From: Escherichia coli
GTDB lineage: Bacteria; Pseudomonadota; Gammaproteobacteria; Enterobacterales; Enterobacteriaceae
Assembly (NCBI RefSeq): GCF_048403405.1
Contig: NZ_CP183129.1
DNA length: 64,000 nucleotides
Strand: one strand, 5' to 3'
How positions within the stretch are numbered: position 1 is the stretch's first letter; the number at the start of each line of letters is the position of its first letter. The notes under the pieces are model-generated. The model worked only from the letters and a program-made list of their open reading frames with translations, had not been told where the DNA came from and did no database searches. Of the stretch, positions 17,931 to 64,000 are shown piece by piece. A program made the position numbers and the translations under genes.

Positions 17931-17963
17931 AGCCCGACGAACTGTTTCGCCGGGCTGATTTTT
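17931..17963. terminator. bidirectional terminator between perM and focB
   Basis: AGCCCG-n14-CGGGCT hairpin followed by GATTTTT. Overlaps the focB stop. Confidence 0.5.
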
Positions 17964-22580: not shown

Positions 22581-22589
22581 CTTCTGTCC

Positions 22590-24305
22590 TTACTTCAGCG
22601 GCGAACGGTTACGATCAATGCCGTAGCGTTCGATCTCTTTATACGGCACGGTTTTTGACTGGCGCTTGCGCACATCAACCAGCGTCACACGGTCGGTACA
22701 GGAGTAGCAGGGATCAAGGCTACCGATAATCAGCGGTGCGTCAGAAACGGTATTGCCGCGCAGCATGTAACGCAGCACTGGCCAGTTGGCGTAGGTGGCG
22801 GCACGACAGCGCCAGCGGAACAATTTTTGGTTATCACCGAGCATGCTCCAGTGCACGTCTTCACCGCGTGGCGCTTCAACAAAGCCCAGCGCGAATGCGT
22901 GAGGTTTATAGCTAAAGCCTTCGGTCAGCAGTGGGGTATCCGGCATGTTGTCGAGGGCAAATTCCAGCATTGCCAGCGAATCAAACGTCTCTTTGACACG
23001 GACCATCACGCGGGAGAAGACATCGCCGCCGGTAAAGGTAAACAGCGTTTTTGGAATATTGCCGTAGTCGGCGTAGGGGTGATCAAAGCGCAAATCACGG
23101 GCAAAGCCACTGCCGCGGATCAGCGGCCCTACGGGGCTATAATCACGGGCGATTTGTCGGTCGAGAATGCCAATGCCCTGAGTGCGTTGTTCCATATTTG
23201 GCGTGGCAAGCAGCATCTCTACCAGCTCCGACACGTCGGCGCGCATCTCACGCACCAGTTTCAGCGTTTGCAGACGTTGCTCTTTGAGAATATCGCGGCG
23301 AACACCACCAATCAGATTCAGACCGTAGGTTTTACGCGACCCGGTCAGCAGTTCCGCCATCGTCATCGACTTTTCCCGCACGCGGAAAAATTGCATAAAG
23401 CCGGTATCAAAACCAACAAAATGGCAGGAGAGGCCAAGGTTGAGCAAATGACTATGCAGCCGTTCGACTTCCAGCAGAATCGAGCGAATAGTATGCGCTC
23501 GTTGCGGCACCTCAATCCCCAGTGCATTTTCAACCGAGTTGGTATAGGCCACACTGTGGGCAAAACCGCAAATCCCACACACGCGGTCGGATAAGAAGGT
23601 CACTTCGTTGTAGCCCATCCGCGTTTCTGCCAGTTTCTCCATGCCGCGATGGACATAAAACAGGCGGTAATCAGCATCGACAATTTGCTCGCCATCCACA
23701 AACAAGCGGAAGTGACCTGGTTCATCGGAGGTGATATGCAGCGGGCCGACAGGGATCACCCGCGCGTCGCTGTTGCCCTCGTTGATAAACGGATACGTTT
23801 CGGTATCAGTCGTCGGTTCAGGGCGCAGTCGATAATCCATCGCATCTTTGCGCAGCGGATGCATATCTTCCGGCCAGTCATCGGGCAACACCAGGCGACG
23901 CTGATCCGGCAGGCCAACCGGAATCAGCCCGTACATATCGCGAATTTCTCGCTCGCCCCAGACCGCGGCAGGGACGCGCGGTGTGACTGACGGAAACTCC
24001 CGACTGTCGGCATCGACCAGTGCCTTCACCACGATCCAGCATTTTTCAGCCCCTTCCATTGAAAGGGCATAATAAACCGCGTAATGACCGTTAAGTGTCC
24101 GCTCGTCGTTGCCAAACAGGACCGGAAGCCAGCCATCATGTTGATAATAAAGATAATGTACAACGTCAGGCAGCAGATTGATTTTCACCGTAATGGTGAC
24201 CTGTTCAGGCGTTTGTCGCTCTTCATCCAGCACCGCGCCGGGGAACTGCGTTTTCAGGGCGGCGAGAATCGCTTCGCCACGATTTGACGATGAATTAACG
24301 TTCAC
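22590..24305 (-). CDS. hyfG: hydrogenase-4 catalytic large subunit HyfG (NiFe, HycE-like)
   Basis: Track ORF 22590..24350 with HycE-like sequence and a C-terminal DPCYSC NiFe ligand motif. Start set at the in-frame GTG at codon 16 ((M)[11 protein letters not shown]); the exact start is uncertain. Confidence 0.88.
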
Positions 24306-25875
24306 TGTGTTTCTCCGAAACAGATGCGGTGCCTGAAGGCAAAAAATCATGCCAGGTGCTACGTTGTGCAGGCAGGTCGTGCGTCCCTGAGAGGACTATA
24401 GTGGAAGCGCCCGCCAGGATCCTGATGACAGGTTGTGGAATATGCGTTCCCATCGCCAGCATCATGACCAGCAGAATCACCATTGGCGAGGTGGTCAACC
24501 AGCCAAGTTCACCCCGGTTAACGGCCTGCGGCGGTTTCGCCATTAACACCCGCGCAGCCATCCGTACCAGGCCCGCCAGCACCAGCGTTAACAGCAATAA
24601 CAGCAGGACGATAATCAGCAGGTGATTACGTGCCAGTCCGGCGGTAACGGTCATAAATTCGCTAAGAAAAATGTTGAAGGGCGGCATCCCTGCCAACGCC
24701 AGCGCACCGCCGCCAAACAGCACGGCGGTAAATGGCATGATTTTAAGCATTCCGCAGACGACGTTGAGATCGCGCGTGCCGTACTTGAGCAGTACATTGC
24801 CGGAACCGCAGAACAGCAGCGTTTTTGCCAGACTGTGGTTTAAGGTGTGCAGCAGCGCAGCAAAAATTCCCAGCGGCCCGCCAATGCCTAGCGCCACCGC
24901 GACCAGTCCCATGTTCTCCACGCTGGAGTACGCCAGCAGACGCTTAATGTCCCGCTGTACCAGAATGAAAAATGCCGCCACGGCAACCGACAACATGCCG
25001 AAGATGAGCAACAACCGGTTGGGGAAATCGCTGCCGATGGCCTGGCAGATAATGATGTAATAGCGAATCAGCACCAACAGCGCGCAGTTCAGCAATACGG
25101 CGGAGAGCAGGGCGCTGACCGGACTCGGCGCTTCACTGTGAGCATCCGGCAGCCAGGCGTGCATGGGAAATAGCCCGGTTTTGGTGCCAAAGCCAATTAG
25201 CACAAACACAAAGGCCAACAGCATTAATGTTGGGTCAAGCAAGGACGATTGCTTAAGAACCTCGCTCCAGAATATCGCCATTTCTGCCTGCGGCATAACG
25301 CTGGCGGCGTTGGCGTATACCAGCACGGTACCGAACAGACCAAAAGCGACACCAACAGTACAAATAATGATGTACTTCCATGCAGCTTCCAGCGATGAAC
25401 GCTGACCGTAAATGCCTACCAGAAACGCCGAGCTTAAGGTGGTGGCTTCGATCGCCGCCCACATCACAATCAGGTTATTGCTGGTAACAACCAGCAGCAT
25501 GGTGAACAAAAACAGATGGAAGAAACCGTAGTAATCGCACAGCGTAACGGGTGAAAGCTCGCCGTGCTCCACTTCATGACGCATGTAGCCAATCGAGTAA
25601 ACACCGGTGAGAAAGCCAATCACACCAAGAATGGCGAGGAACAAACCGCCCAGACCATCAATATGAAGCCACAGTCCCGCAGCGAATATTTCTCCCGCAT
25701 CAGCGGCAGTTTGGACCACCCACAGTGCCAGAATCAGCAGCAGTGTGATCCCTAAGCTATGTAGTACTGTCACCGTGCGAGTCGCAGAGTGCCCCTGTTT
25801 CCGGCAGGCAAAACAGAGCAGTGAAAAAAGCAGCGGCGTGAGCAGGAGTAAAGCGAACATCACAGAATAACTCAT
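24295..25875 (-). CDS. hyfF: hydrogenase-4 membrane subunit HyfF (antiporter-like, NuoL/M/N family)
   Basis: 526-aa polytopic track ORF. Position in the operon. Confidence 0.93.
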
Positions 25876-25879
25876 CTCA

Positions 25880-26530
25880 TTATCCCTTCAGCGCGGTCAA
25901 GTTGTTCACGTCCAGCGTGCCGTGGGTACGCCATATTTTTCTTGCCAGTAACACCATTACAATGACGGCGAAGATGGCGTCGGTAGCGATACCAATTTCC
26001 ACCAGTTCCGGTGCACGCCAGGCAAGAAGCGCCAGCACCAGATGGGAGCCGTTTTCCATCAGGCAGTAACCAAAAATTTGCCGCAGGATATTGCGCTGGC
26101 TGACAATGCACAGCAGGCCAAGCAGAAAATGACCTAACGCCACCGCCAGCGCCGGTTTCAGCCCGGTAGCCATCGGTAGCTTCACGGGCTGAACGACAAA
26201 TGCGCAAAGCAGGACAATTAATGCCGCGAGCAATGCCATCATTGCCGGACCGAATAACGCTTTTTCCGGGATGTTCTGGGGAATATTTCGTGCAGCGTAA
26301 ATCATGATTAACGGTACCAGCAGCACTTTGGTGATAAAGGCGCTGGCGGACCAGATCAGCAGTTGCTCTGCGACGAACAGGCACGAGAGGGTGGCGAAAA
26401 TAGACACCAGCACCAGCGACTGGCAGGCGTAAAATCCGCATGACAGGCGATAGCTTTTGACACTAATCACAAACAGCGATGTCAGCATCATCAGTCCCGC
26501 CAGATTATTTACGATCATAGAACCGGTCAT
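25880..26530 (-). CDS. hyfE: hydrogenase-4 membrane subunit HyfE
   Basis: 216-aa polytopic track ORF. Position in the operon. Confidence 0.9.
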
Positions 26531-26541
26531 TCATCATCTCC

Positions 26542-27981
26542 TTACTGCAACCAGGTCGCGGCGATTACGCTGGAAATCAGCGACATCACAATCAGTACAA
26601 TCAACACCAGGCGCATTGACCCTGGCAGCGGTGCGGCATCGGCGACGGCCTCGCTCGGTTTGCCAGGCACAACGCGACCAAACCAGCGAATAAACCAGGC
26701 GAAACTGGCGACCGATTCAATCATCAGCAGAATCATGGCGGGCAGCAGGATCCAGTACTCCACTGACAACGCAAAACCGGCAGCAAACAGCGGGAATTTA
26801 CTGAAGAAGCCGTTGAATGGCGGCACGCCGGTAATTGCCAGCGCTGCCACGCAGAAACCCACGCCAGGCAACGGCAGGGTGTGCAATACGCCACGCAGAC
26901 GCGGCAACAAGCGCGTGCCGCAGCTGTAACTCAGCGCACCTGCTACAAGGAAAAATAGGCTTTTAGCGAACGCGTGGTTGACGATGTAGGCGATGCTGCC
27001 CTCCAGTGCCAGCCGCGAGCCGAAGATGGAGAGCGACAAGCCGAAGAACATCCAGCCAAGTTGAGTGATGGTCGACCAGGCCAGCAACCGCTTCATATCC
27101 TGCTGTGGCAAATACATCAGGAAGCCGTAAAGAATGGTGACCAGTGCCATGACCATGCCAACGCCGCCAATCACATGCGGGATATTGCCGCCGTCGATAA
27201 TGGCGCGGGCAAAAATGTAAACGCCCACTTTCACCATCGATGCGGCGTGGAGATAGGCGCTGATCGGTGTTGGCGCTTCCATTGCATCCGGTAGCCACGC
27301 TTGCATCGGTAGCTGGGCCGATTTCCCCCACGCGGCAAACAGGATGCCGCCATAAACCAGATAACGTGCATCGCCGTGTAACTCGTTCATCGCGCTAAGC
27401 GCAAACGTTCCGGTCTGCAAAAACAGCGTGGCGGCGGCAAGATACAACCCCAACGAACCGATATGGGTAATAAGCAACGCTTTTAGTGCCGAACGCTGCG
27501 CTTTATCGCTCTGGTAATAACTGATCAACGCCCAGGAGCAGCCGCCCGTAATTTCAAAAAACAACAACTGACCGAGCAGCGTCGAAGAGAGTACCAGTCC
27601 CGCCATCGCGCCGATAAACAGCAGCAAAAATGCGTAATAACGATTCGTGCCGTTATGCGGGTGTTCGCGATTTTTATCCGTCAGATAACCCGTGGAGTAG
27701 ATCGTGACCAGCAAACCGAGAAACACCACCACAAACAGAATCAGCGTACTCACGCGATCAATGACCAGGCCAAACAACGCCACATCCCCCACGTTGACCA
27801 ACGTCAACGTGACGGCAACTTTATCGGCCTGATAAAACGCGGAGATCAGCGACAACATGCACAGCGTGGTCAGCGCGGCGAACAAAATCCCCCATTCGGC
27901 GGCCCGACGTTGTGGCGAAAACGAAACGACCAGTGCGCCGATAAAAGGCAGCAATAACGTCGTCAGAGCAAGATTTTCCAT
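26542..27981 (-). CDS. hyfD: hydrogenase-4 membrane subunit HyfD (antiporter-like)
   Basis: 479-aa polytopic track ORF. Position in the operon. Confidence 0.93.
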   Translation of the reverse strand: MENLALTTLLLPFIGALVVSFSPQRRAAEWGILFAALTTLCMLSLISAFYQADKVAVTLTLVNVGDVALFGLVIDRVSTLILFVVVFLGLLVTIYSTGYLTDKNREHPHNGTNRYYAFLLLFIGAMAGLVLSSTLLGQLLFFEITGGCSWALISYYQSDKAQRSALKALLITHIGSLGLYLAAATLFLQTGTFALSAMNELHGDARYLVYGGILFAAWGKSAQLPMQAWLPDAMEAPTPISAYLHAASMVKVGVYIFARAIIDGGNIPHVIGGVGMVMALVTILYGFLMYLPQQDMKRLLAWSTITQLGWMFFGLSLSIFGSRLALEGSIAYIVNHAFAKSLFFLVAGALSYSCGTRLLPRLRGVLHTLPLPGVGFCVAALAITGVPPFNGFFSKFPLFAAGFALSVEYWILLPAMILLMIESVASFAWFIRWFGRVVPGKPSEAVADAAPLPGSMRLVLIVLIVMSLISSVIAATWLQ

Positions 27982-27997
27982 ATTTCGTCAGTGCTCC

Positions 27998-28945
27998 TTA
28001 CAGACCGGTTAACCAGAAGACCCATGCAAGCGCAGCAAGGCTGAAGCCAAGCCAGGTCACATGGTGAATGAGTAAAAAACGCCCGCGTGCCAGCGTGTTT
28101 TCTGCGATTGAGGCCAGTACAAAAATCAGCAAAACCTTGAGCAGCGTAACGACAAGTGAAGTCAGCAGGCAGGCGAGAGAAAGTTCTTGCGCGCGCCCAA
28201 AGGGCAGAAACAGGGCCACAAACAGTGCTGCCATCACGACCTGTTTCAGCCCCAGCCCCAACTTCGCCAACGCCAGCCCGGCACCGGAATATTCGGTCAG
28301 CGGGCCTTCCTGTAATTCCTGTTCTGCTTCAGCAACATCAAAGGGAATTTTTCCCATCTCAATGAAGCAGGCAAAACCACAGGCCAGTAACGCCAGTACG
28401 GTGGTTAGCGGCGAGTTCCAGCCCGTCGCCAGCGTCTTGCTGATCATCTCGATATGCGTGGAATCCGCTATCAGCGCCAATACCAGCAGTGAGAGAAGGA
28501 GCATGGGTTCGACCAGAATGCCGAGCGTCAACTCGCGACTGGCACCGACTCCCGCAAAGGGGCTTCCGGTATCCAGCCCGGAAAGAGCAAAGAAAAAACG
28601 AAACAGGGCAAGAAGATAGATAAGGGTGATCAGATCGCCGCCGCCCGCAAAAGGGGAAACGGTAATAAATAGTGGCAGGGCCATCGCCAGCACCAGCATG
28701 CTGCTGATTAATACCCACGGCATCAGGCGGAACATCAGACCTGAAGATGTCGGCGCAACTTCCTGGCGTTTAAACAGTTTGTGGATATCGCGATAATCCT
28801 GCCAGATCCCCGGTCCGCGACGGGAGTGCATTCGCGCGCGTATCTGCCGGGAAATCCCCGTAAAAAGCGGGGTTAGCACCAGCAGAGTCACGGCCTGTGC
28901 TAACGCAAAAATGATCAGATATCCGTCGCAAAGAGTTTGTCTCAT
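27998..28945 (-). CDS. hyfC: hydrogenase-4 membrane subunit HyfC (NuoH-like)
   Basis: Track ORF 27998..28966 trimmed to Met 8 (MRQTLCDGY, 315 aa). Confidence 0.9.
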   Translation of the reverse strand: MRQTLCDGYLIIFALAQAVTLLVLTPLFTGISRQIRARMHSRRGPGIWQDYRDIHKLFKRQEVAPTSSGLMFRLMPWVLISSMLVLAMALPLFITVSPFAGGGDLITLIYLLALFRFFFALSGLDTGSPFAGVGASRELTLGILVEPMLLLSLLVLALIADSTHIEMISKTLATGWNSPLTTVLALLACGFACFIEMGKIPFDVAEAEQELQEGPLTEYSGAGLALAKLGLGLKQVVMAALFVALFLPFGRAQELSLACLLTSLVVTLLKVLLIFVLASIAENTLARGRFLLIHHVTWLGFSLAALAWVFWLTGL

Positions 28946-28955
28946 GGTGATTTCC

Positions 28956-30974
28956 TTAGACGGCAATAGCGATTAGCAGCACAACCAGTGCGGCGACCAC
29001 ATACAGGCAATAGAGACGAAAGTCGCCGCTTTGCAGATGCTGTATTTCTTTGGCCAGCCGTTGGGTGGCGCTCACGATGGGGCGGATCACCCGCTCATCC
29101 CAGAAGGGTTCTGTGCTCTGAGCCCTGGCGGTGACATGCGCAAGACCTTTGTTCAGCCTCAGCGTAGGGTCGAGCTGTTGTCGTAGACGAAATAGCGCAC
29201 AAAAGACCACACGCAGCGGTTGCATCACGCCATTGCCTGACGGGGCCATCGCATTATCCCAGCCGTAGCCGCATGCCCAGGCATCTCCTGTGCGACGAAA
29301 CGCTGCGCGGCGCGAACGACACCACAGCCAGTAAAGGCCAGGCAGCAAAGGCATCGCCAGTAGTAACAGCAACAGTAATGAGGGAGTGACCCGTGTATGA
29401 AACGTGCCTGGTACAAGTGCTATTCCGCTGGCGACAGTGACGGGAGGGGTATTGGTAAACGCATGGGCAATGTGCATTATCTTCGGTGCCAGCCAACTGG
29501 CACTAAGCGCAATGAATATGCAGAGTGCCGCGAGCAGTAGCATGGCGACGATCATCGTATTCGGCACTTCCTGTGCCTCTTCAGCGTGTGTACTGCGCGG
29601 CGCTCCACAGAAAGTAATACCGTACATTTTGACGAAGCACATTACTGCCAGCCCACCAGTGACTGCCAGCATCACCATAGCAATAGGACCCGCAAGTTGT
29701 AGCGCTACGGCTTCCACACGACTTAGTGAGAACAGCGACTGCCAGGTGTACCATTCGCTGATAAAACCATTCAGCGGAGGAATGGCTGATATCGCGAGGC
29801 AACCAATCAGGCATGCTGCGGCTGTCCACGGCATCCGTTTTGCCAGTGCCCCCATTTTTTCCATGTCGTGGGTATGCAAACGCGAAATAATCGCACCCGC
29901 GCCGAGAAACAGCAGCCCTTTGAACAGCGCATGGTTGAGCAGATGAAACAGCGCGCCGAGCAGTCCAACAACGGTGAGCAGCGGGTCGTGCAGTGACAGA
30001 CCGACCATCGCCACACCGACCGCCAGCAAAATAATGCCGACGTTTTCGACGGTACTCCAGGCCAGCAGCCGTTTGATATCCTGTTCCGCCAGCGCATACA
30101 GCACGCCCAGGAGCGCGGAGATTGCGCCGATCGCCATCACCAGAATGCCCCACCACAGCGGCAAACCCGTTTGCGCCAGCAGGTCCATCGCTACTTTCAG
30201 GATGCCGAAAATACCGATTTTGACCATTACGCCAGACATCAACGCCGAAGCGTGCGATGGTGCGGCAGGGTGAGCGCGTGGCAACCAGCTGTGCAACGGC
30301 ATCATCCCGGCTTTCGCGCCAAAACCAAAGAAGGCCATCAGGAACACCGCCGACGCCAGCCCCGGAGAAAGTGAAAGCGTGCGGAAACTGGCAAAATCGA
30401 GGCTGCCGCTTTCGCGCCCCATCAGCAAGAAGGCGATCATAATCAGTACCGATCCGGCGTGGGCGATAAAAAAGTAGAGCATGCCAGCGTTGATTGACGT
30501 TTTATCCTGCCTGGCAATGACCAGAAACCAGGAAGACAGCGACATCATTTCAAACAGCACGATGAACCAAAAAGCGTTGTCCATCACCAGCAGGGCAACC
30601 ATCGATGCGATGAAAAGATTCATAAAGAAGCCCATCGCCGCCGCGCCTTTGCCCTCGTATTCGCGCATATAAGTCAATGAATAGAGCGAACAAACCACCA
30701 CCAGCAAGGAGATAACCAGCACCATAAATGCCGAGAGGCTATCCATTCGCAGGGTTAAATCGGCAAAGTCAAAAGGCGTGGCAAAACGGGCGACTAAAAT
30801 TACGCCTGCATGTAATTGCGTAATTCCGCTGATGATGCCAATCACGCCACCCACCAGCGATGTGATGCCGGAAAGCTTAATAGCCAGTCTGTCCAGACCG
30901 AGTAAAAACAGCGAAGCCAGACTGGCAAACAGATAGAGGATCAGCGACCAGGTTAATAATTGCAGGGCATCCAT
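28956..30974 (-). CDS. hyfB: hydrogenase-4 membrane subunit HyfB (antiporter-like)
   Basis: 672-aa polytopic track ORF. Position in the operon. Confidence 0.93.
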   Translation of the reverse strand: MDALQLLTWSLILYLFASLASLFLLGLDRLAIKLSGITSLVGGVIGIISGITQLHAGVILVARFATPFDFADLTLRMDSLSAFMVLVISLLVVVCSLYSLTYMREYEGKGAAAMGFFMNLFIASMVALLVMDNAFWFIVLFEMMSLSSWFLVIARQDKTSINAGMLYFFIAHAGSVLIMIAFLLMGRESGSLDFASFRTLSLSPGLASAVFLMAFFGFGAKAGMMPLHSWLPRAHPAAPSHASALMSGVMVKIGIFGILKVAMDLLAQTGLPLWWGILVMAIGAISALLGVLYALAEQDIKRLLAWSTVENVGIILLAVGVAMVGLSLHDPLLTVVGLLGALFHLLNHALFKGLLFLGAGAIISRLHTHDMEKMGALAKRMPWTAAACLIGCLAISAIPPLNGFISEWYTWQSLFSLSRVEAVALQLAGPIAMVMLAVTGGLAVMCFVKMYGITFCGAPRSTHAEEAQEVPNTMIVAMLLLAALCIFIALSASWLAPKIMHIAHAFTNTPPVTVASGIALVPGTFHTRVTPSLLLLLLLAMPLLPGLYWLWCRSRRAAFRRTGDAWACGYGWDNAMAPSGNGVMQPLRVVFCALFRLRQQLDPTLRLNKGLAHVTARAQSTEPFWDERVIRPIVSATQRLAKEIQHLQSGDFRLYCLYVVAALVVLLIAIAV

Positions 30975-31591
30975 TAGCGTTGCTCCTGAGTGAGGGAAAG
31001 GGGATCCTCCCCGCCATTGGCAAACCAGCTTGCGGCAAGGCGCTGTTTTTCTTTCATCTGACGTTGCAGGCTATCGTCGGTGATCAGCCGTAACGCCTGA
31101 TTCGGGCAAGCGCGAACGCAGGCCGGACCTTCTGGCAAGAAATCACACAGGTCGCATTTCACCGCGACGGTCTGGACACCCGGTTCCCAGCGCAGCAAAG
31201 CATGTTGGGTCGGCGCGTTTTCTTCGCCGTCTTTGAGTGAGCCGTCAGCCTGAAAAACATATTGCGCAGGGGCATTCACCGGACGGCTTCCTGAAGCGCT
31301 GATTGCGCCAAATGGGCAGACCACGGCGCAAAGCTTGCAACCAATACAAAGGCTTTCGTTGAGTTGGATCGCATCATCCCTCTGGGAAATGGCATTGACC
31401 AGGCAGACCTGCAGGCAAGGGGCTTCCTCACAGTGATGACACACGACAGGGGCAGTGAGTGTTGACGTCTTCGCCAGGGCCAGGCGCGGGTGTTGCTGTA
31501 AACCTTGCGTTTTATGCACGTCCGAACAGGCAGCGAGACAGGTATTACATCCTGTACACCACAGTGGTTCGGCCACCACAAAGCGGTTCAT
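30974..31591 (-). CDS. hyfA: hydrogenase-4 iron-sulfur subunit HyfA (HycB-like ferredoxin)
   Basis: Track ORF 30974..31630 trimmed to Met 14 (MNRFVVAEPLWCTGCNTC, 205 aa), which is preceded by AAGGAG. Multiple CxxCxxC motifs. Confidence 0.9.
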   Translation of the reverse strand: MNRFVVAEPLWCTGCNTCLAACSDVHKTQGLQQHPRLALAKTSTLTAPVVCHHCEEAPCLQVCLVNAISQRDDAIQLNESLCIGCKLCAVVCPFGAISASGSRPVNAPAQYVFQADGSLKDGEENAPTQHALLRWEPGVQTVAVKCDLCDFLPEGPACVRACPNQALRLITDDSLQRQMKEKQRLAASWFANGGEDPLSLTQEQR

Positions 31592-54394: not shown

Positions 54395-56674
54395 ATGGAT
54401 GACCAGTTAAAACAAAGTGCACTTGATTTCCATGAATTTCCAGTTCCAGGGAAAATCCAGGTTTCTCCAACCAAGCCTCTGGCAACGCAGCGCGATCTGG
54501 CGCTGGCCTACTCACCAGGCGTTGCCGCACCTTGTCTTGAAATCGAAAAAGACCCGTTAAAAGCCTACAAATATACCGCGCGCGGTAACCTGGTGGCGGT
54601 GATCTCTAACGGTACGGCGGTGCTGGGGTTAGGCAACATTGGCGCGCTGGCAGGCAAACCGGTGATGGAAGGCAAGGGCGTTCTGTTTAAGAAATTCGCC
54701 GGGATTGATGTATTTGACATTGAAGTTGATGAACTCGACCCGGACAAATTTATTGAAGTCGTCGCCGCGCTTGAACCGACCTTCGGCGGCATCAACCTCG
54801 AAGACATTAAAGCGCCAGAATGTTTCTATATTGAACAGAAACTGCGCGAGCGGATGAATATTCCGGTATTCCACGACGATCAGCACGGCACGGCAATCAT
54901 CAGCACTGCCGCCATCCTCAACGGTTTGCGCGTGGTGGAGAAAAACATCTCTGACGTGCGGATGGTGGTTTCCGGCGCGGGTGCCGCAGCAATCGCCTGT
55001 ATGAACCTGCTGGTAGCGCTGGGTCTGCAAAAACATAACATCGTGGTTTGCGACTCAAAAGGCGTTATCTATCAGGGCCGTGAGCCAAACATGGCGGAAA
55101 CCAAAGCCGCATATGCGGTGGTGGATGACGGCAAACGTACCCTCGATGATGTGATTGAAGGCGCGGATATTTTCCTCGGCTGTTCCGGCCCGAAAGTGCT
55201 GACCCAGGAAATGGTGAAGAAAATGGCTCGAGCGCCAATGATCCTGGCGCTGGCGAACCCGGAACCGGAAATTCTGCCGCCGCTGGCGAAAGAAGTGCGT
55301 CCGGATGCCATCATCTGCACCGGTCGTTCCGACTACCCGAACCAGGTGAACAACGTTCTTTGCTTCCCGTTCATCTTCCGTGGCGCGCTGGACGTTGGCG
55401 CAACGGCTATCAATGAAGAGATGAAACTGGCGGCAGTACGCGCGATTGCAGAACTGGCCCATGCGGAACAGAGTGAAGTGGTGGCTTCAGCTTATGGCGA
55501 TCAGGATCTGAGCTTTGGTCCGGAATACATCATTCCAAAACCGTTTGATCCGCGCTTGATCGTTAAGATCGCTCCTGCGGTCGCTAAAGCCGCGATGGAG
55601 TCGGGCGTGGCGACGCGTCCGATTGCTGATTTCGACGTCTACATCGACAAGCTGACGGAGTTCGTTTACAAAACCAACCTGTTTATGAAGCCGATTTTTT
55701 CCCAGGCTCGCAAAGCGCCGAAGCGCGTCGTTCTGCCGGAAGGGGAAGAGGCGCGCGTTCTGCATGCCACTCAGGAACTGGTAACGCTGGGGCTGGCGAA
55801 ACCGATCCTTATCGGTCGTCCGAACGTGATCGAAATGCGCATTCAGAAACTGGGCTTGCAGATCAAAGCGGGTGTTGATTTTGAGATCGTCAATAACGAA
55901 TCCGATCCGCGCTTTAAAGAGTACTGGACTGAATACTTCCAGATCATGAAGCGTCGCGGTGTCACTCAGGAACAGGCTCAGCGTGCGCTGATCAGTAATC
56001 CGACAGTGATCGGCGCAATCATGGTTCAGCGTGGCGAAGCCGATGCAATGATCTGCGGTACGGTGGGCGATTATCATGAACATTTTAGCGTGGTAAAAAA
56101 TGTCTTTGGTTATCGCGATGGCGTTCACACCGCAGGTGCCATGAACGCGCTGCTGCTGCCGAGTGGTAACACCTTTATTGCCGATACCTACGTCAATGAC
56201 GAACCAGACGCAGAAGAGCTGGCGGAGATCACCTTGATGGCGGCAGAAACTGTTCGTCGTTTTGGCATTGAGCCGCGTGTGGCTCTGTTGTCGCACTCCA
56301 ACTTTGGTTCTTCTGACTGCCCGTCGTCGAGCAAAATGCGTCAGGCGCTGGAACTGGTCAGGGAACGTGCACCAGAACTGATGATTGATGGTGAAATGCA
56401 CGGCGATGCAGCGCTGGTGGAAGCGATTCGCAGCGACCGTATGCCGGACAGCCCTTTGAAAGGTTCCGCTAATATTCTGGTGATGCCGAACATGGAAGCT
56501 GCCCGCATTAGTTACAACTTATTGCGCGTTTCCAGCTCGGAAGGTGTGACTGTCGGCCCGGTGCTGATGGGCGTGGCGAAACCGGTTCACGTGTTAACGC
56601 CGATCGCATCGGTACGTCGTATCGTCAACATGGTGGCGCTAGCCGTGGTTGAAGCACAAACCCAACCGCTGTAA
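54395..56674 (+). CDS. maeB: NADP-dependent malic enzyme
   Basis: 759-aa track ORF ([23 protein letters not shown]). Malic-enzyme domain plus C-terminal PTA-like domain. Confidence 0.95.
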
Positions 56675-56691: not shown

Positions 56692-56724
56692 CGCTTACCC
56701 TGAATATTCAGGGTAAGCGGTTTT
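56692..56724 (+). terminator. rho-independent terminator after maeB
   Basis: Perfect 28-nt palindrome CGCTTACCCTGAATATTCAGGGTAAGCG followed by GTTTT. Confidence 0.6.
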
Positions 56725-56966
56725 CCTGAAATATATTAGCAAAGCTTATTACTGAGTTTGCGAATAATAAAAAAAGCAGTATATAAAATATCTCGATATT
56801 ATTTTATTTATATTCATGCCTCGCATATGAAAGTTTATTCATAACAGTAAATATCTCTCCATTCTTAGTGATCTACCTCACCTTTTAAACGCGCTTGCCG
56901 AATTTTGTTATTTACTCTGACGAAAAATTGTCACGATACACGAAAGTTTTTCACAGGCGGCGACTC

Positions 56967-57302
56967 ATGGATAAAGAACGCATCATTCAGGAATTTGTGC
57001 CCGGCAAACAGGTCACACTGGCGCATCTCATCGCGCATCCCGGCGAGGAACTGGAGAAGAAAATCGGCGTTCCTGATGCGGGCGCAATCGGCATTATGAC
57101 GCTAACTCCCGGCGAAACGGCGATGATCGCCGGTGATTTAGCACTAAAAGCCGCCGATGTGCATATCGGTTTTCTCGACCGTTTTAGCGGCGCGTTGGTG
57201 ATTTATGGCTCGGTGGGTGCAGTAGAAGAAGCGTTATCACAAACCGTCAGCGGTTTAGGGCGTTTATTAAATTATACGCTTTGTGAAATGACCAAAAGTT
57301 AA
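56967..57302 (+). CDS. eutS: ethanolamine-utilisation microcompartment shell protein EutS
   Basis: Track ORF 56895..57302 trimmed to Met 25 ([16 protein letters not shown], 111 aa). BMC-domain protein. Confidence 0.9.
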
Positions 57303-57314
57303 TACGAGGCATTC

Positions 57315-57794
57315 ATGAAACGAATTGCGTTTGTGGGTACCGTCGGGGCAGGAAAAACAACGTTATTTAATGCGTTGCAGGGAGATTATACCCTCGCCAG
57401 AAAAACGCAGGCCGTAGAATTTAATGATAAGGGCGATATTGATACGCCGGGTGAATATTTTAGCCATCCCCGCTGGTATCACGCCTTAATTACCACGCTA
57501 CAGGATGTGGACATGCTGATCTATGTCCATGGCGCGAATGACCCGGAAAGTCGGTTGCCTGCCGGGTTGCTGGATATTGGCGTCAGCAAACGGCAAATCG
57601 CCGTCATCAGTAAAACGGACATGCCAGATGCTGACGTCGCCGCAACGCGAAAGTTATTGCTTGAGACGGGCTTCGAAGAGCCGATTTTCGAGCTAAACAG
57701 CCACGACCCGCAAAGCGTGCAGCAACTGGTGGATTATCTGGCATCTCTCACCAAACAGGAGGAAGCAGGTGAAAAAACTCATCACAGCGAATGA
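57315..57794 (+). CDS. eutP: ethanolamine-utilisation acetate kinase/GTPase-like protein EutP
   Basis: 159-aa track ORF with P-loop GTVGAGKTT. Confidence 0.93.
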   Translation: MKRIAFVGTVGAGKTTLFNALQGDYTLARKTQAVEFNDKGDIDTPGEYFSHPRWYHALITTLQDVDMLIYVHGANDPESRLPAGLLDIGVSKRQIAVISKTDMPDADVAATRKLLLETGFEEPIFELNSHDPQSVQQLVDYLASLTKQEEAGEKTHHSE

Positions 57795-58470
57795 TATTCG
57801 TGAAGCACACGCGCGCGGCGAACAGGCAATGTCCGTGGTTCTGCGCGCCAGCATTATTACCCCGGAAGCCCGTGAAGTGGCAGATCTACTGGGTTTTACC
57901 ATCACTGAATGTGATGAATCGACCCCGGTAACGGCGTCCGTTCCCGCCTGCGTGCCAGCCGATAAAACCGAAAGCCAGCGTATCCGCGAAACCATCATCG
58001 CCCAGCTACCGGAAGGCCAGTTTACCGAAAGCCTGGTCGCGCAGCTGATGGAAAAAGTGATGAAGGAAAAACAGTCACTGGAGCAGGGTGCAATGCAGCC
58101 GAGTTTCAAATCGGTGACCGGCAAAGGCGGCATCAAAGTTATTGATGGCAGCAGCGTCAAGTTTGGTCGTTTCGACGGCGCAGAGCCGCATTGCGTGGGC
58201 TTGACTGATCTTGTGACCGGAGACGACGGCAGCAGCATGGCCGCCGGTTTTATGCAGTGGGAGAACGCATTCTTCCCGTGGACCCTGAACTACGACGAAA
58301 TCGACATGGTGCTGGAAGGGGAGCTGCATGTTCGCCACGAAGGCGAAACCATGATCGCCAAAGCAGGCGACGTAATGTTTATCCCGAAAGGCTCCAGCAT
58401 CGAATTTGGTACGACATCCAGCGTGAAATTCCTGTATGTCGCCTGGCCGGCTAACTGGCAATCCCTATGA
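57769..58470 (+). CDS. eutQ: ethanolamine-utilisation protein EutQ (cupin-fold acetate kinase)
   Basis: 233-aa track ORF. Overlaps the eutP 3' end by 26 nt. Confidence 0.93.
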   Translation: MKKLITANDIREAHARGEQAMSVVLRASIITPEAREVADLLGFTITECDESTPVTASVPACVPADKTESQRIRETIIAQLPEGQFTESLVAQLMEKVMKEKQSLEQGAMQPSFKSVTGKGGIKVIDGSSVKFGRFDGAEPHCVGLTDLVTGDDGSSMAAGFMQWENAFFPWTLNYDEIDMVLEGELHVRHEGETMIAKAGDVMFIPKGSSIEFGTTSSVKFLYVAWPANWQSL

Positions 58471-59270
58471 AAGATTTCATCACCGAAGCATGGCTAAGAG
58501 CGAATCATACGCTTAGCGAAGGCGCAGAGATCCATCTCCCTGCGGACAGTCGCCTGACGCCCTCTGCCCGGGAGTTGCTGGAAAGCCGCCATCTGCGCAT
58601 CAAGTTTATTGACGAGCAGGGCCGCCTGTTTGTTGACGATGAACAGCAGCAGCCGCAGCCCGTTCACGGGCTGACCAGTAGTGATGAACATCGGCAGGCG
58701 TGCTGCGAACTGTGCCGCCAGCCGGTGGCGAAAAAGCCGGACACGCTGACTCACCTGTCGGCGGAAAAAATGGTCGCCAAAAGCGATCCGCGTCTGGGTT
58801 TTCGCGCGGTTCTCGACAGCACCATTGCGCTGGCAGTGTGGCTGCAAATTGAACTGGCGGAACCGTGGCAGCCGTGGCTGGCGGACATCCGCTCGCGTCT
58901 TGGCAACATTATGCGCGCCGATGCGCTGGGGGAACCGCTGGCCTGCCAAGCGATTGTCGGGCTTTCTGACGAAGATCTGCATCGGCTTTCTCATCAGCCG
59001 CTGCGCTATCTTGGTCACGATCATCTGGTGCCGGAAGCCAGCCACGGGCGCGATGCGGCGTTACTCAATCTGCTACGCACCAAAGTGCGGGAAACCGAAA
59101 CCGTAGCGGCGCAGGTGTTTATAACCCGCAGTTTTGAAGTATTACGCCCGGACATCTTGCAGGCGCTGAACCGCCTTTCGAGCACGGTCTACGTGATGAT
59201 GATCCTGAGCGTAACGAAGCAGCCGCTAACGGTGAAGCAGATCCAACAACGACTGGGGGAAACGCAATGA
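58467..59270 (+). CDS. eutT: ethanolamine-utilisation cobalamin adenosyltransferase EutT
   Basis: 267-aa track ORF. Start overlaps the eutQ stop. Confidence 0.93.
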
Positions 59271-60283
59271 TTATTGAACGTTGTCGTGAACTGGCGTTGC
59301 GAGCGCCCGCCAGAGTGGTTTTTCCGGATGCGTTAGATCAACGTGTGCTGAAAGCCGCGCAATATTTACATCAACAAGGTCTGGCAACGCCCATTCTGGT
59401 CGCCAATCCGTTTGAACTTCGTCAGTTTGCGCTCAGTCACGGCGTGGCGATGGACGGGCTACAGGTGATAGATCCGCATGGCAACCTCGCAATGCGGGAA
59501 GAATTTGCTCTCCGCTGGCTGGCCCGTGCGGGCGAAAAAACGCCGCCGGATGCGTTGGAAAAACTCACCGATCCGCTGATGTTCGCTGCCGCAATGGTCA
59601 GCGCCGGGACAGCGGATGTCTGTATCGCGGGCAATCTCTCTTCCACGGCGAATGTGCTGCGTGCCGGATTACGCATTATTGGCTTACAGCCAGGCTGTAA
59701 AACGCTCTCCTCCATTTTCCTGATGCTGCCACAGTACAGTGGCCCCGCATTGGGCTTTGCCGATTGCAGCGTAGTGCCACAGCCGACGGCGGCGCAGCTG
59801 GCGGATATCGCGCTTGCCAGCGCCGAAACCTGGCGCGCCATCACCGGAGAAGAGCCGCGCGTGGCGATGCTGTCGTTTTCCAGCAACGGTAGTGCCCGTC
59901 ACCCCTGCGTTGCCAACGTCCAGCAGGCGACAGAAATCGTCCGTGAGCGCGCACCGAAGCTGGTGGTGGATGGCGAGTTGCAGTTTGACGCCGCCTTCGT
60001 GCCGGAAGTGGCGGCGCAAAAAGCGCCTGCCAGCCCGCTACAAGGCAAGGCCAATGTGATGGTTTTTCCGTCGCTGGAAGCCGGAAATATTGGCTACAAA
60101 ATCGCACAACGACTCGGCGGATATCGTGCCGTCGGGCCATTGATACAAGGGCTTGCCGCGCCGATGCACGATCTCTCTCGTGGTTGTAGCGTGCAGGAAA
60201 TTATCGAGCTGGCGCTGGTGGCAGCTGTGCCGCGTCAGACAGAAGTGAACCGCGAAAGCAGTTTACAAACACTGGTTGAATGA
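59267..60283 (+). CDS. eutD: phosphotransacetylase EutD
   Basis: 338-aa track ORF ([31 protein letters not shown]). Pta-like. Confidence 0.93.
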
Positions 60284-60321
60284 ACGGTCCCGTTCTGGAC
60301 CCTGATAAAGAGGAAAGCACA

Positions 60322-60615
60322 ATGGAAGCATTAGGAATGATCGAAACCCGGGGCCTGGTTGCACTGATTGAGGCTTCTGACGCGATGGTGAAAGCTGCGC
60401 GCGTCAAGCTGGTTGGTGTTAAGCAGATTGGCGGCGGCCTGTGTACTGCCATGGTTCGTGGTGATGTTGCAGCCTGTAAAGCCGCGACCGACGCAGGTGC
60501 TGCAGCGGCACAGCGTATCGGCGAGCTGGTATCTGTACACGTTATCCCGCGTCCGCACGGCGACCTGGAAGAAGTCTTCCCGATCGGCCTGAAAGGCGAT
60601 AGCAGCAACCTGTAA
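60322..60615 (+). CDS. eutM: microcompartment shell protein EutM (BMC-H)
   Basis: Track ORF 60280..60615 trimmed to Met 15 ([26 protein letters not shown], 97 aa). Confidence 0.93.
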
Positions 60616-60721
60616 TCACCCTGTGTGACGTCGATTCGGGCGTCACGCTCTCTCCTTTTTCAGTTTTCCTTCCGCGGAGGGTAGGGGGAGCTTTTACCTG
60701 AAATACGCCACGGAGGCGGGT

Positions 60722-61009
60722 ATGAAACTGGCAGTCGTCACTGGACAAATTGTTTGTACCGTACGCCATCACGGACTGGCGCATGACAAATTGCTGATGG
60801 TGGAAATGATTGATCCACAAGGTAATCCTGACGGGCAATGCGCCGTCGCCATCGACAATATTGGCGCGGGAACCGGGGAGTGGGTGTTGCTGGTGAGTGG
60901 CAGTTCTGCCCGCCAGGCGCATAAAAGCGAAACATCACCGGTCGATCTGTGCGTGATTGGCATCGTCGATGAGGTGGTGTCTGGCGGTCAGGTAATTTTC
61001 CACAAATAA
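60722..61009 (+). CDS. eutN: microcompartment vertex protein EutN (BMV)
   Basis: 95-aa track ORF (MKLAVVTGQIVCTVRHHGLAHDKLL). Confidence 0.93.
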   Translation: MKLAVVTGQIVCTVRHHGLAHDKLLMVEMIDPQGNPDGQCAVAIDNIGAGTGEWVLLVSGSSARQAHKSETSPVDLCVIGIVDEVVSGGQVIFHK

Positions 61010-61020
61010 GGCAGAACATC

Positions 61021-62424
61021 ATGAATCAACAGGATATTGAACAGGTGGTGAAAGCGGTACTGCTGAAAATGCAAAGCAGTGACACGCCGCCCGCCGCCGT
61101 TCATGAGATGGGCGTTTTCGCGTCCCTGGATGACGCCGTTGCGGCAGCCAAAATTGCCCAGCAAGGGTTAAAGAGCGTGGCAATGCGCCAGTTAGCCATT
61201 GCTGCCATTCGTGAAGCAGGCGAAAAACACGCCAGAGATTTAGCGGAACTTGCCGTCAGTGAAACCGGCATGGGCCGCGTCGAAGATAAATTTGCCAAAA
61301 ACGTCGCTCAGGCGCGCGGCACACCAGGCGTTGAGTGCCTCTCACCACAGGTGCTGACCGGTGACAACGGCCTGACCCTGATTGAAAACGCACCCTGGGG
61401 CGTGGTGGCTTCGGTGACGCCTTCCACTAACCCGGCGGCAACCGTAATTAACAACGCCATCAGCCTGATTGCCGCGGGCAACAGCGTCATTTTTGCCCCG
61501 CATCCGGCGGCGAAAAAAGTCTCCCAGCGGGCGATTACGCTGCTCAACCAGGCGATTGTTGCCGCAGGCGGGCCGGAAAACTTACTGGTTACTGTGGCCA
61601 ATCCGGATATCGAAACCGCACAACGCTTGTTCAAGTTTCCCGGCATCGGCCTGCTGGTGGTGACCGGCGGCGAAGCGGTAGTAGAAGCGGCGCGTAAACA
61701 CACCAATAAACGTCTGATTGCCGCAGGCGCTGGCAACCCGCCGGTAGTGGTGGATGAAACCGCTGACCTCGCCCGTGCTGCTCAGTCCATCGTCAAAGGC
61801 GCGTCTTTCGATAACAACATCATTTGTGCCGACGAAAAGGTACTGATTGTTGTTGATAGCGTAGCCGATGAACTGATGCGTCTGATGGAAGGCCAGCACG
61901 CGGTGAAACTGACCGCAGAGCAGGCGCAGCAGCTGCAACCGGTGTTGCTGAAAAATATCGACGAGCGCGGAAAAGGCACCGTCAGCCGTGACTGGGTTGG
62001 TCGCGATGCGGCGAAAATCGCGGCGGCAATCGGCTTTGAAGTTCCGGAACAAACGCGACTGCTGTTTGTAGAAACCACCGCAGAACATCCGTTTGCTGTG
62101 ACTGAACTGATGATGCCGGTGCTGCCCGTCGTGCGCGTCGCCAACGTGGCGGATGCCATTGCGCTGGCGGTGAAACTGGAAGGCGGTTGCCATCACACGG
62201 CGGCAATGCACTCGCGCAACATCGAGAACATGAACCAGATGGCGAACGCCATTGATACCAGCATTTTCGTTAAGAACGGACCGTGCATTGCCGGGCTGGG
62301 GCTGGGCGGGGAAGGCTGGACCACCATGACCATCACCACGCCAACCGGTGAAGGGGTAACCAGCGCGCGTACGTTTGTCCGTCTGCGTCGCTGTGTATTA
62401 GTTGATGCGTTTCGCATTGTTTAA
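61021..62424 (+). CDS. eutE: acetaldehyde dehydrogenase (CoA-acylating) EutE
   Basis: 467-aa track ORF. Aldehyde dehydrogenase family. Confidence 0.93.
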   Translation: MNQQDIEQVVKAVLLKMQSSDTPPAAVHEMGVFASLDDAVAAAKIAQQGLKSVAMRQLAIAAIREAGEKHARDLAELAVSETGMGRVEDKFAKNVAQARGTPGVECLSPQVLTGDNGLTLIENAPWGVVASVTPSTNPAATVINNAISLIAAGNSVIFAPHPAAKKVSQRAITLLNQAIVAAGGPENLLVTVANPDIETAQRLFKFPGIGLLVVTGGEAVVEAARKHTNKRLIAAGAGNPPVVVDETADLARAAQSIVKGASFDNNIICADEKVLIVVDSVADELMRLMEGQHAVKLTAEQAQQLQPVLLKNIDERGKGTVSRDWVGRDAAKIAAAIGFEVPEQTRLLFVETTAEHPFAVTELMMPVLPVVRVANVADAIALAVKLEGGCHHTAAMHSRNIENMNQMANAIDTSIFVKNGPCIAGLGLGGEGWTTMTITTPTGEGVTSARTFVRLRRCVLVDAFRIV

Positions 62425-62434
62425 GGAGTAACCG

Positions 62435-63271
62435 ATGGCGCACGACGAACAATGGCTCACCCCACGTCTGCAAACGGCGGCAACGCTGTGTAACCAGACG
62501 CCCGCCACGACGGAGTCTCCGCTGTGGCTGGGGGTAGATCTGGGCACCTGCGATGTGGTGTCGATGGTTGTCGACCGCGACGGTCAGCCGGTGGCGGTAT
62601 GCCTCGACTGGGCTGATGTGGTCCGCGACGGCATCGTCTGGGATTTCTTCGGTGCGGTCACCATTGTTCGTCGCCATCTCGACACTCTTGAGCAGCAATT
62701 CGGTCGCCGTTTTAGCCATGCGGCGACCTCATTTCCTCCTGGTACGGACCCGCGTATTTCCATCAACGTGCTGGAGTCTGCCGGACTGGAAGTGAGCCAT
62801 GTGCTGGATGAGCCAACCGCAGTTGCGGATCTGCTGCAACTGGACAACGCCGGTGTAGTGGATATCGGCGGTGGCACCACCGGCATTGCCATCGTGAAAA
62901 AGGGCAAGGTGACTTACTCGGCAGATGAAGCCACCGGCGGACATCATATCTCTCTGACTCTCGCCGGAAATCGCCGTATTTCGCTGGAAGAGGCGGAGCA
63001 GTACAAGCGCGGTCACGGTGACGAGATTTGGCCTGCGGTGAAACCGGTGTACGAAAAAATGGCGGACATTGTCGCCCGGCATATTGAAGGGCAGGGCATT
63101 ACTGATTTATGGCTGGCGGGCGGCTCTTGTATGCAACCGGGCGTGGCGGAACTGTTTCGCAAACAATTCCCGGCGTTACAGGTGCATCTACCGCAGCACA
63201 GTTTGTTTATGACCCCGCTGGCGATCGCCAGTAGCGGGCGAGAGAAAGCGGAGGGGATCTATGCAAAATGA
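62435..63271 (+). CDS. eutJ: ethanolamine-utilisation chaperone-like protein EutJ (actin/Hsp70 fold)
   Basis: 278-aa track ORF with the DLGTCDV ATPase motif. Confidence 0.93.
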   Translation: MAHDEQWLTPRLQTAATLCNQTPATTESPLWLGVDLGTCDVVSMVVDRDGQPVAVCLDWADVVRDGIVWDFFGAVTIVRRHLDTLEQQFGRRFSHAATSFPPGTDPRISINVLESAGLEVSHVLDEPTAVADLLQLDNAGVVDIGGGTTGIAIVKKGKVTYSADEATGGHHISLTLAGNRRISLEEAEQYKRGHGDEIWPAVKPVYEKMADIVARHIEGQGITDLWLAGGSCMQPGVAELFRKQFPALQVHLPQHSLFMTPLAIASSGREKAEGIYAK

Positions 63272-64000
63272 ATTGCAGGCCGCGCTCTTTCAGGCGTTCG
63301 ATACCCTGAATCTGCAACGGGTAAAAACATTTAGCGTTCCACCGGTGACGCTTTGCGGTCCGGGCGCGGTGAGCAGTTGTGGGCAGCAAGCGCAAACGCG
63401 TGGGCTGAAACATCTGTTCGTGATGGCAGACAGCTTTTTGCATCAGGCAGGGATGACCGCCGGGCTGACGCGTAGCCTGGCCGTTAAAGGTATCGCCATG
63501 ACGCTCTGGCCATGTCCGGTGGGCGAACCATGCATCACCGACATGTGTGCAGCCGTGGCGCAGTTGCGTGAATCAGGCTGTGACGGGGTGATTGCGTTTG
63601 GCGGCGGCTCGGTGCTGGATGCAGCAAAAGCCGTGGCGTTGCTGGTGACGAACCCGGATAGCACGCTGGCAGAGATGTCAGAAACCAGCGTTCTGCAACC
63701 GCGCCTGCCGTTGATTGCCATTCCAACTACCGCCGGAACCGGTTCTGAAACCACCAACGTAACGGTGATTATCGACGCGGTGAGCGGGCGCAAGCAGGTG
63801 TTAGCCCACGCCTCGCTGATGCCGGATGTGGCGATTCTCGACGCTGCGCTGACCGAAGGCGTGCCGTCGCATGTCACGGCGATGACCGGTATCGACGCGT
63901 TAACCCATGCTATTGAAGCGTACAGCGCGCTGAACGCTACACCGTTTACCGACAGCCTGGCGATTGGCGCAATCGCGATGATTGGTAAATCACTGCCGAA
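63261..64000 (+). CDS. eutG: alcohol dehydrogenase EutG (iron-containing ADH family), 3'-truncated by the window end
   Basis: ATG at 63261 overlaps the eutJ end. Translation MQNELQAALFQAFDTLNLQRVKTF..., with GGGS and TTAGTGSE motifs. Absent from the ORF track because no stop lies within the window. Confidence 0.85.
   Translation, partial: MQNELQAALFQAFDTLNLQRVKTFSVPPVTLCGPGAVSSCGQQAQTRGLKHLFVMADSFLHQAGMTAGLTRSLAVKGIAMTLWPCPVGEPCITDMCAAVAQLRESGCDGVIAFGGGSVLDAAKAVALLVTNPDSTLAEMSETSVLQPRLPLIAIPTTAGTGSETTNVTVIIDAVSGRKQVLAHASLMPDVAILDAALTEGVPSHVTAMTGIDALTHAIEAYSALNATPFTDSLAIGAIAMIGKSLP

Follow-up and report, generated by a model that had tools for sequence, protein, structure and literature searches.

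Is the translation of eutQ in Escherichia coli tied to that of eutP by the overlap between the two genes, or is the overlap a by-product at the end of eutP that leaves eutQ to initiate on its own? The question is raised by the right end of a 64,000-nt stretch of E. coli DNA, referred to here as the window, for which an original prediction had proposed tight translational coupling across the ethanolamine (eut) operon, including a 26-nt overlap of eutP and eutQ. The prediction also held that this is expected for an ethanolamine microcompartment operon and of low interest, and with that we agree.

The eut operon and its junctions

At the right end of the window lie the first ten eut operon genes, all on the + strand, in the order eutS-P-Q-T-D-M-N-E-J-G and downstream of maeB (54395-56674). 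The first gene, eutS (56967-57302), encodes a BMC shell protein of 111 aa (Pfam BMC domain, 6e-12), with PGAP and the K-12 annotation in agreement, and is followed by eutP (57315-57794), whose 159-aa product is a PduV-EutP GTPase-like protein annotated as acetate kinase, and by eutQ (57769-58470), 233 aa from a GTG start. Next come eutT (58467-59270), a cobalamin adenosyltransferase of 267 aa that aligns with NF011595 over 1-267 of 267, and eutD, or pta (59267-60283), a phosphotransacetylase of 338 aa (Pfam PTA_PTB over 1-320; NF007233 from residue 3). The shell genes eutM (60322-60615; BMC shell protein, 97 aa, Pfam BMC 3.5e-29) and eutN (60722-61009; pentameric vertex shell protein, 95 aa, Pfam EutN_CcmL 2e-30) precede eutE (61021-62424), an acetaldehyde dehydrogenase of 467 aa (Pfam Aldedh; annotated in the relative described below and in K-12), eutJ (62435-63271), an actin/Hsp70-fold protein of 278 aa (NF011660, residues 2-271), and eutG (63261-64000), an Fe-alcohol dehydrogenase (Pfam Fe-ADH). 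Each product belongs to its expected family in Pfam and NCBIfam, and for the products of eutT, eutD and eutG the match to the NCBIfam model starts at residue 1 to 3. The gene order and the shell domains (BMC, PF00936; EutN/CcmL, PF03319) are those of the enterobacterial EUT1 operon, and the shell genes eutS, eutM and eutN are indeed interleaved with enzyme genes. The operon is, as had been said, cut by the window edge: eutG is truncated at base 64000 with 246 of its 395 codons inside, while in strain 4621 the complete gene is 1188 nt long and its protein matches NF011998 over 1-395 of 395.

Frame analysis gives distances of +12 nt for eutS/eutP, -26 for eutP/eutQ, -4 for both eutQ/eutT and eutT/eutD, +38 for eutD/eutM, +106 for eutM/eutN, +11 for eutN/eutE, +10 for eutE/eutJ and -11 for eutJ/eutG. 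The overlap of eutP and eutQ (57769-57794, GTGAAAAAACTCATCACAGCGAATGA) is thus exactly 26 nt, as in the PGAP and K-12 MG1655 annotations, and the other three overlaps, given as 4-11 nt, measure 4, 4 and 11 nt. At 58467-58470 the eutQ stop and the eutT start share an ATGA, and a second ATGA at 59267-59270 joins eutT to eutD, with GGGGGAAA just upstream; the eutJ/eutG overlap (63261-63271) has a GGAGG 6 nt before the eutG ATG. The last 7 residues of EutJ, the overlap included, lie outside the part aligned with NF011660. We rejected a eutM start at the in-frame ATG 60280, which would create one more ATGA overlap with eutD: it has no Shine-Dalgarno site, it would put the beginning of the BMC domain as far in as residue 17, and the annotations do not use it. 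Just past the eutM stop, in the gap of 106 nt that precedes eutN, lies a G+C-rich hairpin of 10 bp (60623-60648), followed by a T-rich tail, and this hairpin is kept in the Klebsiella, Citrobacter and L005 loci. A search of the whole window against Rfam gave no family at the gathering threshold.

Strain 4621, annotated by PGAP, is 100% identical to the window over 56700-64000, with the same eut starts, stops and overlaps, and 99.997% identical over 1803-64000; positions 1-1802 are the end of a prophage that this close relative lacks. The curated record of K-12 MG1655 (b2461/b2460) has the same eut coordinates, the 26-nt overlap included. A 121-nt segment spanning the eutP/eutQ junction was found in 5,408 of 5,426 complete E. 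coli genomes; 5,233 of the 5,409 matching records, among them K-12 MG1655 and O157:H7, have it with 99% identity or more, and in an MG1655 assembly it is 100% identical. The prophage that interrupts the K-12 operon further downstream, as the original prediction mentioned, is the cryptic prophage CPZ-55, located between eutB and eutA in MG1655. K-12 MG1655 thus shares the overlap with the window but carries CPZ-55 in its eut operon, whereas the operon of strain 4621, the closest relative of the window, is intact. The proposed extension to the right, to eutH, eutA and eutB, was followed in this closest complete genome, where the operon runs unbroken through eutH, eutA, eutB, eutC, eutL, eutK and eutR, with 11 nt between eutA and eutB and no prophage. 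The signature enzyme of the EUT1 operon, ethanolamine ammonia-lyase EutBC, and the regulator EutR, whose genes lie past the window edge, are thus encoded in this relative. The CPZ-55 junction occurs in only 288 of the 5,426 genomes, and many of those listed are K-12 laboratory strains.

The overlap is an already known and ordinary feature, since it stands in the curated K-12 annotation and the corresponding overlap in Salmonella was noted in 2025 in a study of how Eut microcompartments assemble (PMC12487888). The Salmonella junction described there involves the same two genes, with the same GTG start, GGAGGAA Shine-Dalgarno site and frame relation as in E. coli, but in the sampled S. enterica arizonae and diarizonae the overlap is 23 nt and eutP ends at a TAA, compared with 26 nt in E. 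coli, where GCT has become GCG. Neither are the eut overlaps statistically remarkable, because -4 is the commonest spacing of co-directional gene pairs in E. coli, because spacings of +9 to +12 form a second peak, specific to E. coli, with the Shine-Dalgarno site in the gap (PMC10666635), and because a run-on of eight codons to the next stop, after one has been bypassed, lies well inside the expected range. The gaps of +10 to +12 nt at eutS/eutP, eutN/eutE and eutE/eutJ belong to this second peak.

The start of eutQ

When genes overlap by more than about 20 nt, the cause is often a miscalled start. If that were the case here, the overlap would be an annotation artefact, with the real start of eutQ at the ATG 57829 (codon 21) and the genes not overlapping at all. 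Apart from the length of the overlap, this reading could point to the GTG start codon and to the Pfam EutQ model (PF06249), which begins only at residue 85 and covers 85-232; the structure PDB 2PYT covers 102-232. The ATG 57829, however, has no Shine-Dalgarno site, and its duplex with the anti-Shine-Dalgarno sequence (-2.6 kcal/mol) is at background level. No in-frame ATG, GTG or TTG stands between a stop at 57694 in the same frame and the GTG 57769, and 6 nt before this GTG lies an AGGAGG (57757-57762, + strand), inside eutP, where it also codes for part of the Q-E-E of EutP. The duplex at this site, -10.3 kcal/mol, is stronger than at any other eut start and ranks in the top 0.2% of positions in the region, and GGAGGAA is kept in those Enterobacteriaceae that have the long overlap.

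The protein itself speaks for the same start. The NCBIfam equivalog NF012001 aligns with EutQ from residue 1, over 1-233 of 233 (501.8 bits against a cutoff of 193), so the match is full-length and takes in both the N-terminal region, a shell/cargo-linker of residues 1 to about 99, and the C-terminal cupin domain of residues about 100-233. In a library search, full-length homologues with identities down to about 30% align from their residue 1-3 to residue 1-2 of the query, residues 1-20 being conserved down to 27% identity. When 18 of these homologues are aligned, conservation is 90% or more at M1, K2 and L4, and T31 and A34 do not vary. Residues 1-46 are moreover homologous to residues 1-46 of EutT, from residue 1 on (BLASTP, E 1e-4; hhalign profile-profile comparison, 95.5% probability, E 1.4e-8). 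Distant relatives begin the same N-terminus with ATG in layouts where the genes do not overlap, and in Salmonella EutQ residues 1-99 work in targeting while deletion of 9-41 gives a phenotype (PMC12487888). The start at GTG 57769 is secure. A miscalled start is refuted to the extent that computation allows and hardly deserves further belief, and the concern that wrong start calls might have produced the overlaps can be laid aside in view of the Shine-Dalgarno strengths, the NCBIfam alignments and the N-termini of the homologues.

The N-terminus of EutQ also matches the EutA model NF007991 of NCBIfam (E 4e-9). We do not regard it as EutA-like, as a comparison with E. coli EutA itself gave no similarity (E 63) and the match probably reflects the model's own members.

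Coupled or independent initiation

If the genes were tightly coupled, ribosomes ending eutP at 57794 would back up about 23-26 nt and reinitiate at the GTG 57769, and the output of EutQ would follow that of EutP. The two genes share one transcript and overlap, eutP contains the Shine-Dalgarno site of eutQ, and Escherichia, Salmonella, Klebsiella and Citrobacter have all kept the layout; this is what such a coupling could look like. Efficient termination-reinitiation is however tied to spacings of -8 to +6, which make up 24% of the co-directional pairs in E. coli, and it drops steeply with distance: in native E. coli pairs with the stop upstream of the start, a gap of +14 nt costs 40-80% of it and one of +38 nt costs 80-100% (PMC10666635). 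Long overlaps arise by loss or bypass of a stop codon, typically without such coupling (PMC10666635). Both eutP/eutQ (-26) and eutJ/eutG (-11) fall outside the range of coupled pairs. A coupled downstream gene should also have a weak or masked Shine-Dalgarno site, which holds for eutT (-1.7 kcal/mol) but not for eutQ, the owner of the best site in the operon. Nor did we find significant RNA structure masking the eutQ ribosome-binding site, the fold of 57700-57830 having an energy of -34.6 kcal/mol and a z-score of -0.62; the RNA fold was therefore rejected as a coupling switch, the CUCUC/GGAGG pairing within it also being small and not conserved in Citrobacter.

Protein abundances point the same way. 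When E. coli K-12 W3110 grows on ethanolamine and B12, EutQ ranks first in abundance among the Eut proteins and is set at 100, and EutP reaches 7 +/- 1 (PMC11334477). With EutQ about 14 times as abundant as EutP, ribosomes handed over from eutP cannot be the main source of EutQ, with the qualification that these iBAQ values are steady-state abundances and not rates of synthesis, and that EutQ may be stabilised by encapsulation. The strain is K-12 W3110 and not that of the window, but the eutP/eutQ junction is identical in K-12. Nature has in addition separated the two genes: in Intestinirhabdus alba and Citrobacter amalonaticus S646, eutP is followed by extra DNA and only then by an unchanged GGAGGAAGGGGCAG-GTG, and it stops 15 or 54 nt before eutQ. 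The eutQ initiation module therefore persists with or without an overlapping eutP.

It could also be imagined that the overlap is a selected device, in which ribosomes translating the tail of eutP cover the ribosome-binding site of eutQ, tune its initiation and thereby set the ratio of EutP to EutQ. With the Shine-Dalgarno site and the GTG inside translated eutP the geometry permits this, and the overlap is persistent across several genera. Yet eutP seems to be weakly translated, with a modest Shine-Dalgarno duplex of its own (-5.9 kcal/mol) and an abundance of 7, so occlusion would be rare; the length of the overlap and the sequence of the tail drift, the junction is interrupted in some species, and the outgroups do with +12 or -4. 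We find such a device improbable. Tight coupling, too, is an unlikely reading of this junction. The 26-nt overlap is most likely not a sign of tight coupling, and we infer that eutQ is translated mainly by ribosomes initiating independently at AGGAGG-6 nt-GTG; some reinitiation by ribosomes terminating 23-26 nt downstream of the eutQ start is possible.

The idea of coupling, which had been drawn from geometry alone, thus fits worst at the very junction singled out for it, and is plausible at the ATGA junctions, above all eutQ/eutT. [quoted passage not shown] In contrast to those pairs the eut pairs are known from their geometry only, and eutP/eutQ and eutJ/eutG combine a spacing outside the range with strong Shine-Dalgarno sites. 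As eutT has an ATGA and no Shine-Dalgarno site (its duplex is the -1.7 kcal/mol mentioned above), eutQ/eutT is plausibly the best candidate for genuine coupling, and termination-reinitiation would be likely only at the ATGA junctions. For eutT/eutD, where a duplex of -8.4 kcal/mol accompanies the ATGA and GGGGGAAA, and for eutJ/eutG, with -10.0 kcal/mol at its 11-nt overlap and GGAGG, either mode of initiation could apply.

Origin of the overlap and the frame under selection

Junctions were gathered from contigs encoding EutQ homologues, and also from one genome per species scanned with the back-translated N-terminus of EutQ, which gave 47 loci; the frequencies of the classes in this pattern survey are biased. 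A distance of -26 nt was found in four Escherichia species and in Citrobacter sedlakii, and -23 nt in 24 genomes of Citrobacter, Klebsiella, Salmonella, Pluralibacter and Pseudocitrobacter. Two Buttiauxella and two Pseudomonas have -4 nt (ATGA), one relative with 69% identity has -1 nt (TGATG), nine genomes, of Serratia, Morganella and P. gergoviae, have gaps of +11 or +12 nt, and relatives at 46% and 37% identity have +35 and +38 nt. Three loci have irregular junctions, in two of which the upstream gene is not eutP. The eutQ start is GTG in all genomes with the long overlap. It is ATG, the three irregular loci excepted, in those sampled relatives where the upstream gene is eutP and either overlaps eutQ by a few nt or ends before it.

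In a DNA alignment, a spacer of 8 nt separates GGAGGAA from the eutQ start in Buttiauxella, whose eutP ends on the ATGA. The clade with -23 has a spacer of 7 nt, and its eutP is read in a different frame, up to a TAA located 23 nt into eutQ. Escherichia has GCG in place of GCT as the seventh codon of eutQ, which leaves the EutQ residue as it was but abolishes the TAA, and eutP ends 3 nt later at a TGA; the spacer is here 3 nt shorter, so that EutP stays at 159 aa. The most parsimonious reading, based on a handful of outgroups, is that the long overlap derives from a short one through an indel of 1 nt. The outgroups have the eutP stop 11-12 nt ahead of the ATG of eutQ, or right at it (ATGA, TGATG). 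On the lineage to Citrobacter, Klebsiella, Salmonella and Escherichia, a deletion of 1 nt, the likeliest event, would then have shortened the spacer and shifted the frame of eutP, which would have been read past the start of eutQ to the TAA 23 nt inside. In Escherichia the change from GCT to GCG probably abolished this TAA, so that the stop shifted by another 3 nt to the TGA that gives 26 nt. An origin by an indel agrees with the route to long overlaps discussed in PMC10666635. Other long unidirectional overlaps that arose by loss or bypass of a stop (PMC10666635, PMC3887535) also extend to the next in-frame stop and have an unconstrained tail, but in the eut case we infer that the bypass came from a change of 1 nt in the spacer and not from a point mutation in the stop. 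That the overlap has been kept across several genera could on the other hand also mean that it is useful.

Which of the two frames is under selection can be judged from the tail of EutP. The frame of eutQ is +1 relative to that of eutP, and the third codon positions of eutQ are the first codon positions of eutP, which is why a synonymous change in eutQ almost always alters EutP. Of eutP, the final 8 sense codons and the stop lie inside eutQ. The family-wide domain of EutP ends at about residue 143-144 (Pfam PF10662, 1-143; TIGR02528, 2-144), and the overlapped tail is beyond the coverage of both models. Among the genomes with the long overlap the tails include AGEKTHHSE, AGEKTYHS, AGEETNHS and PGEETHYR, and they differ between species (K/E, H/Y/N, H/Y, S/R, stop/E) exactly at the third positions of eutQ. 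The search pattern had fixed the N-terminal peptide of EutQ, which leaves the EutP frame as the only one whose variation is informative in this survey; we rejected the survey as proof of constraint on eutQ, the conservation of which was drawn from independent protein searches. The best explanation of these tails is that they simply track the silent sites of eutQ, and that selection would act on the eutQ frame, whose first residues begin the shell-binding helix of EutQ. In EutQ, helices H1 and H2 bind the shell and H3 and H4 the cargo (PMC12487888).

The frame relation brings up one more alternative, in which programmed +1 frameshifting, or slippage of the transcript, on the run of six A's (G GTG AAA AAA C) would yield a fusion of EutP and EutQ. 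The run lies within the overlap and the frame of eutQ is the required one; databases also hold fusion ORFs of 384-396 aa, and a cluster of 184 members with 243 aa reads ...AGEK-LITAN, as though one A were missing. Six A's are however not known to suffice for efficient slippage. The fusion ORFs change frame at no fewer than four different places, as expected from sporadic mutations or sequencing errors, and were for this reason dismissed as a programmed event. A programmed frameshift site consists of a conserved slippery sequence and a stimulatory element, and the junction offers neither of them: the run of A's is broken in Klebsiella and others (GTGAAGAAAC), the Klebsiella sequence being GAAGAAAC, and the fold z-score of -0.62 and the Rfam search give no stimulatory structure. 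Programmed frameshifting is in our opinion extremely unlikely. That the overlap of 23-26 nt is functional in either way, setting the EutP:EutQ ratio by occlusion or giving a low level of fusion protein through +1 slippage, seems very doubtful; if it were true, a fusion would tether the cytosolic GTPase-like EutP to the shell-binding N-terminus of EutQ.

The long overlap is real and fixed, and we consider it likely that it is a neutral by-product at the 3' end of eutP and that eutQ initiates independently. What this adds to a known feature is that the overlap is probably neutral and derived, through bypass of a stop, that tight coupling is unlikely at this overlap of 26 nt and plausible only at the ATGA junctions, and that the start call is secure. 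For engineering of the eut operon it means that a deletion or a tag at the 3' end of eutP, or in codons 1-9 of eutQ, alters both genes, and that the Shine-Dalgarno site of eutQ sits in eutP while the expression of eutQ is probably independent of it. The eutP/eutQ junction is also a worked example of how the change of a single base can turn a short junction of the coupling type into a long overlap.

Variants at the eutP/eutQ and eutQ/eutT junctions

Short insertions separate eutP from eutQ in Intestinirhabdus alba (locus L051) and C. amalonaticus S646 (L032), and eutQ from eutT in C. enshiensis (L004, positions 3203-3358). The three share a motif, GGCTGCAACAATTACGCCTGATG and GGCGGCAACAATCACGCCTGTTG, and are probably a small repeat element; they abolish the gene overlaps and leave the start sites downstream undisturbed. 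The eut locus of Citrobacter koseri NCTC10786 (L055) carries an apparent frameshift in the middle of eutP and one additional G in the Shine-Dalgarno region (CAGGGAGGAAGG); either the gene is a pseudogene or the assembly contains an error here. Public assemblies also hold EutP-EutQ fusion ORFs, which arise from frameshifts of 1 nt at several different positions in eutP and whose products fall into the protein clusters P0003 (184 members), P0014 (180 members), P0005-P0008 and P0109. With about 180 sequences in each of two of these clusters, at least some of the fusions may be real lineage variants and not sequencing errors.

A module shared by EutQ and EutT

The first 46 or so residues of EutQ (residues 1-46, window 57769-57906) and of EutT (residues 1-46, window 58467-58604) are homologous modules (BLASTP E 1e-4; hhalign 95.5% probability, E 1.4e-8), with the consensus MKKLITaxDIR...IITPeARdlA...gI. 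No Pfam model spans this module. The EutQ N-terminus matches positions 2-88 of the NCBIfam model for EutA, NF007991, at E 4e-9, and also TIGR02536, but despite the former match no similarity was found between it and E. coli EutA itself. EutQ has been reported to bind the shell through H1/H2, the region that matches the module, in a study that does not discuss EutT (PMC12487888). As EutT has the homologous module, we suggest by analogy that it may dock on the shell in the same way.

A hairpin between eutM and eutN

The gap between eutM and eutN (60616-60721) contains a G+C-rich hairpin with a 10-bp stem (GTGTGACGTC...GGCGTCACGC), which sits 8 nt past the eutM stop and is followed by a T-rich tail (60623-60648). 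It is kept in the Klebsiella and Citrobacter loci and in the 69%-identical eut locus; S. arizonae has a REP-like element in its place. EutM and EutN have been measured at an abundance ratio of 96:1 (PMC11334477), and the hairpin could account for this ratio, either by acting as a partial terminator or by stabilising the mRNA.

The prophage end and the hyf operon

Window 1-1802 is the end of a prophage, with genes for a holin (286-594), a GH19 endolysin (about 590-1213) and a DUF2514 protein (1210-1692), and adjoins yfgI (1912-2451, minus strand). Strain 4621, almost identical to the window elsewhere, carries guaB/guaA in place of the prophage end. At least 80% of window 1-2400 is covered in 529 of 5,426 E. 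coli genomes, with a best identity of 97.4%. The hyf operon lies on the minus strand at about 20874-31591 and focB downstream of it on the same strand (about 17962-18810); in strain 4621, focB is annotated as a pseudogene because of an internal stop. The pair hyfH-hyfI is one of three native E. coli gene pairs in an experimental model of termination-reinitiation coupling (PMC10666635), and is thus a measured case of coupling that shares the window with the eut junctions.
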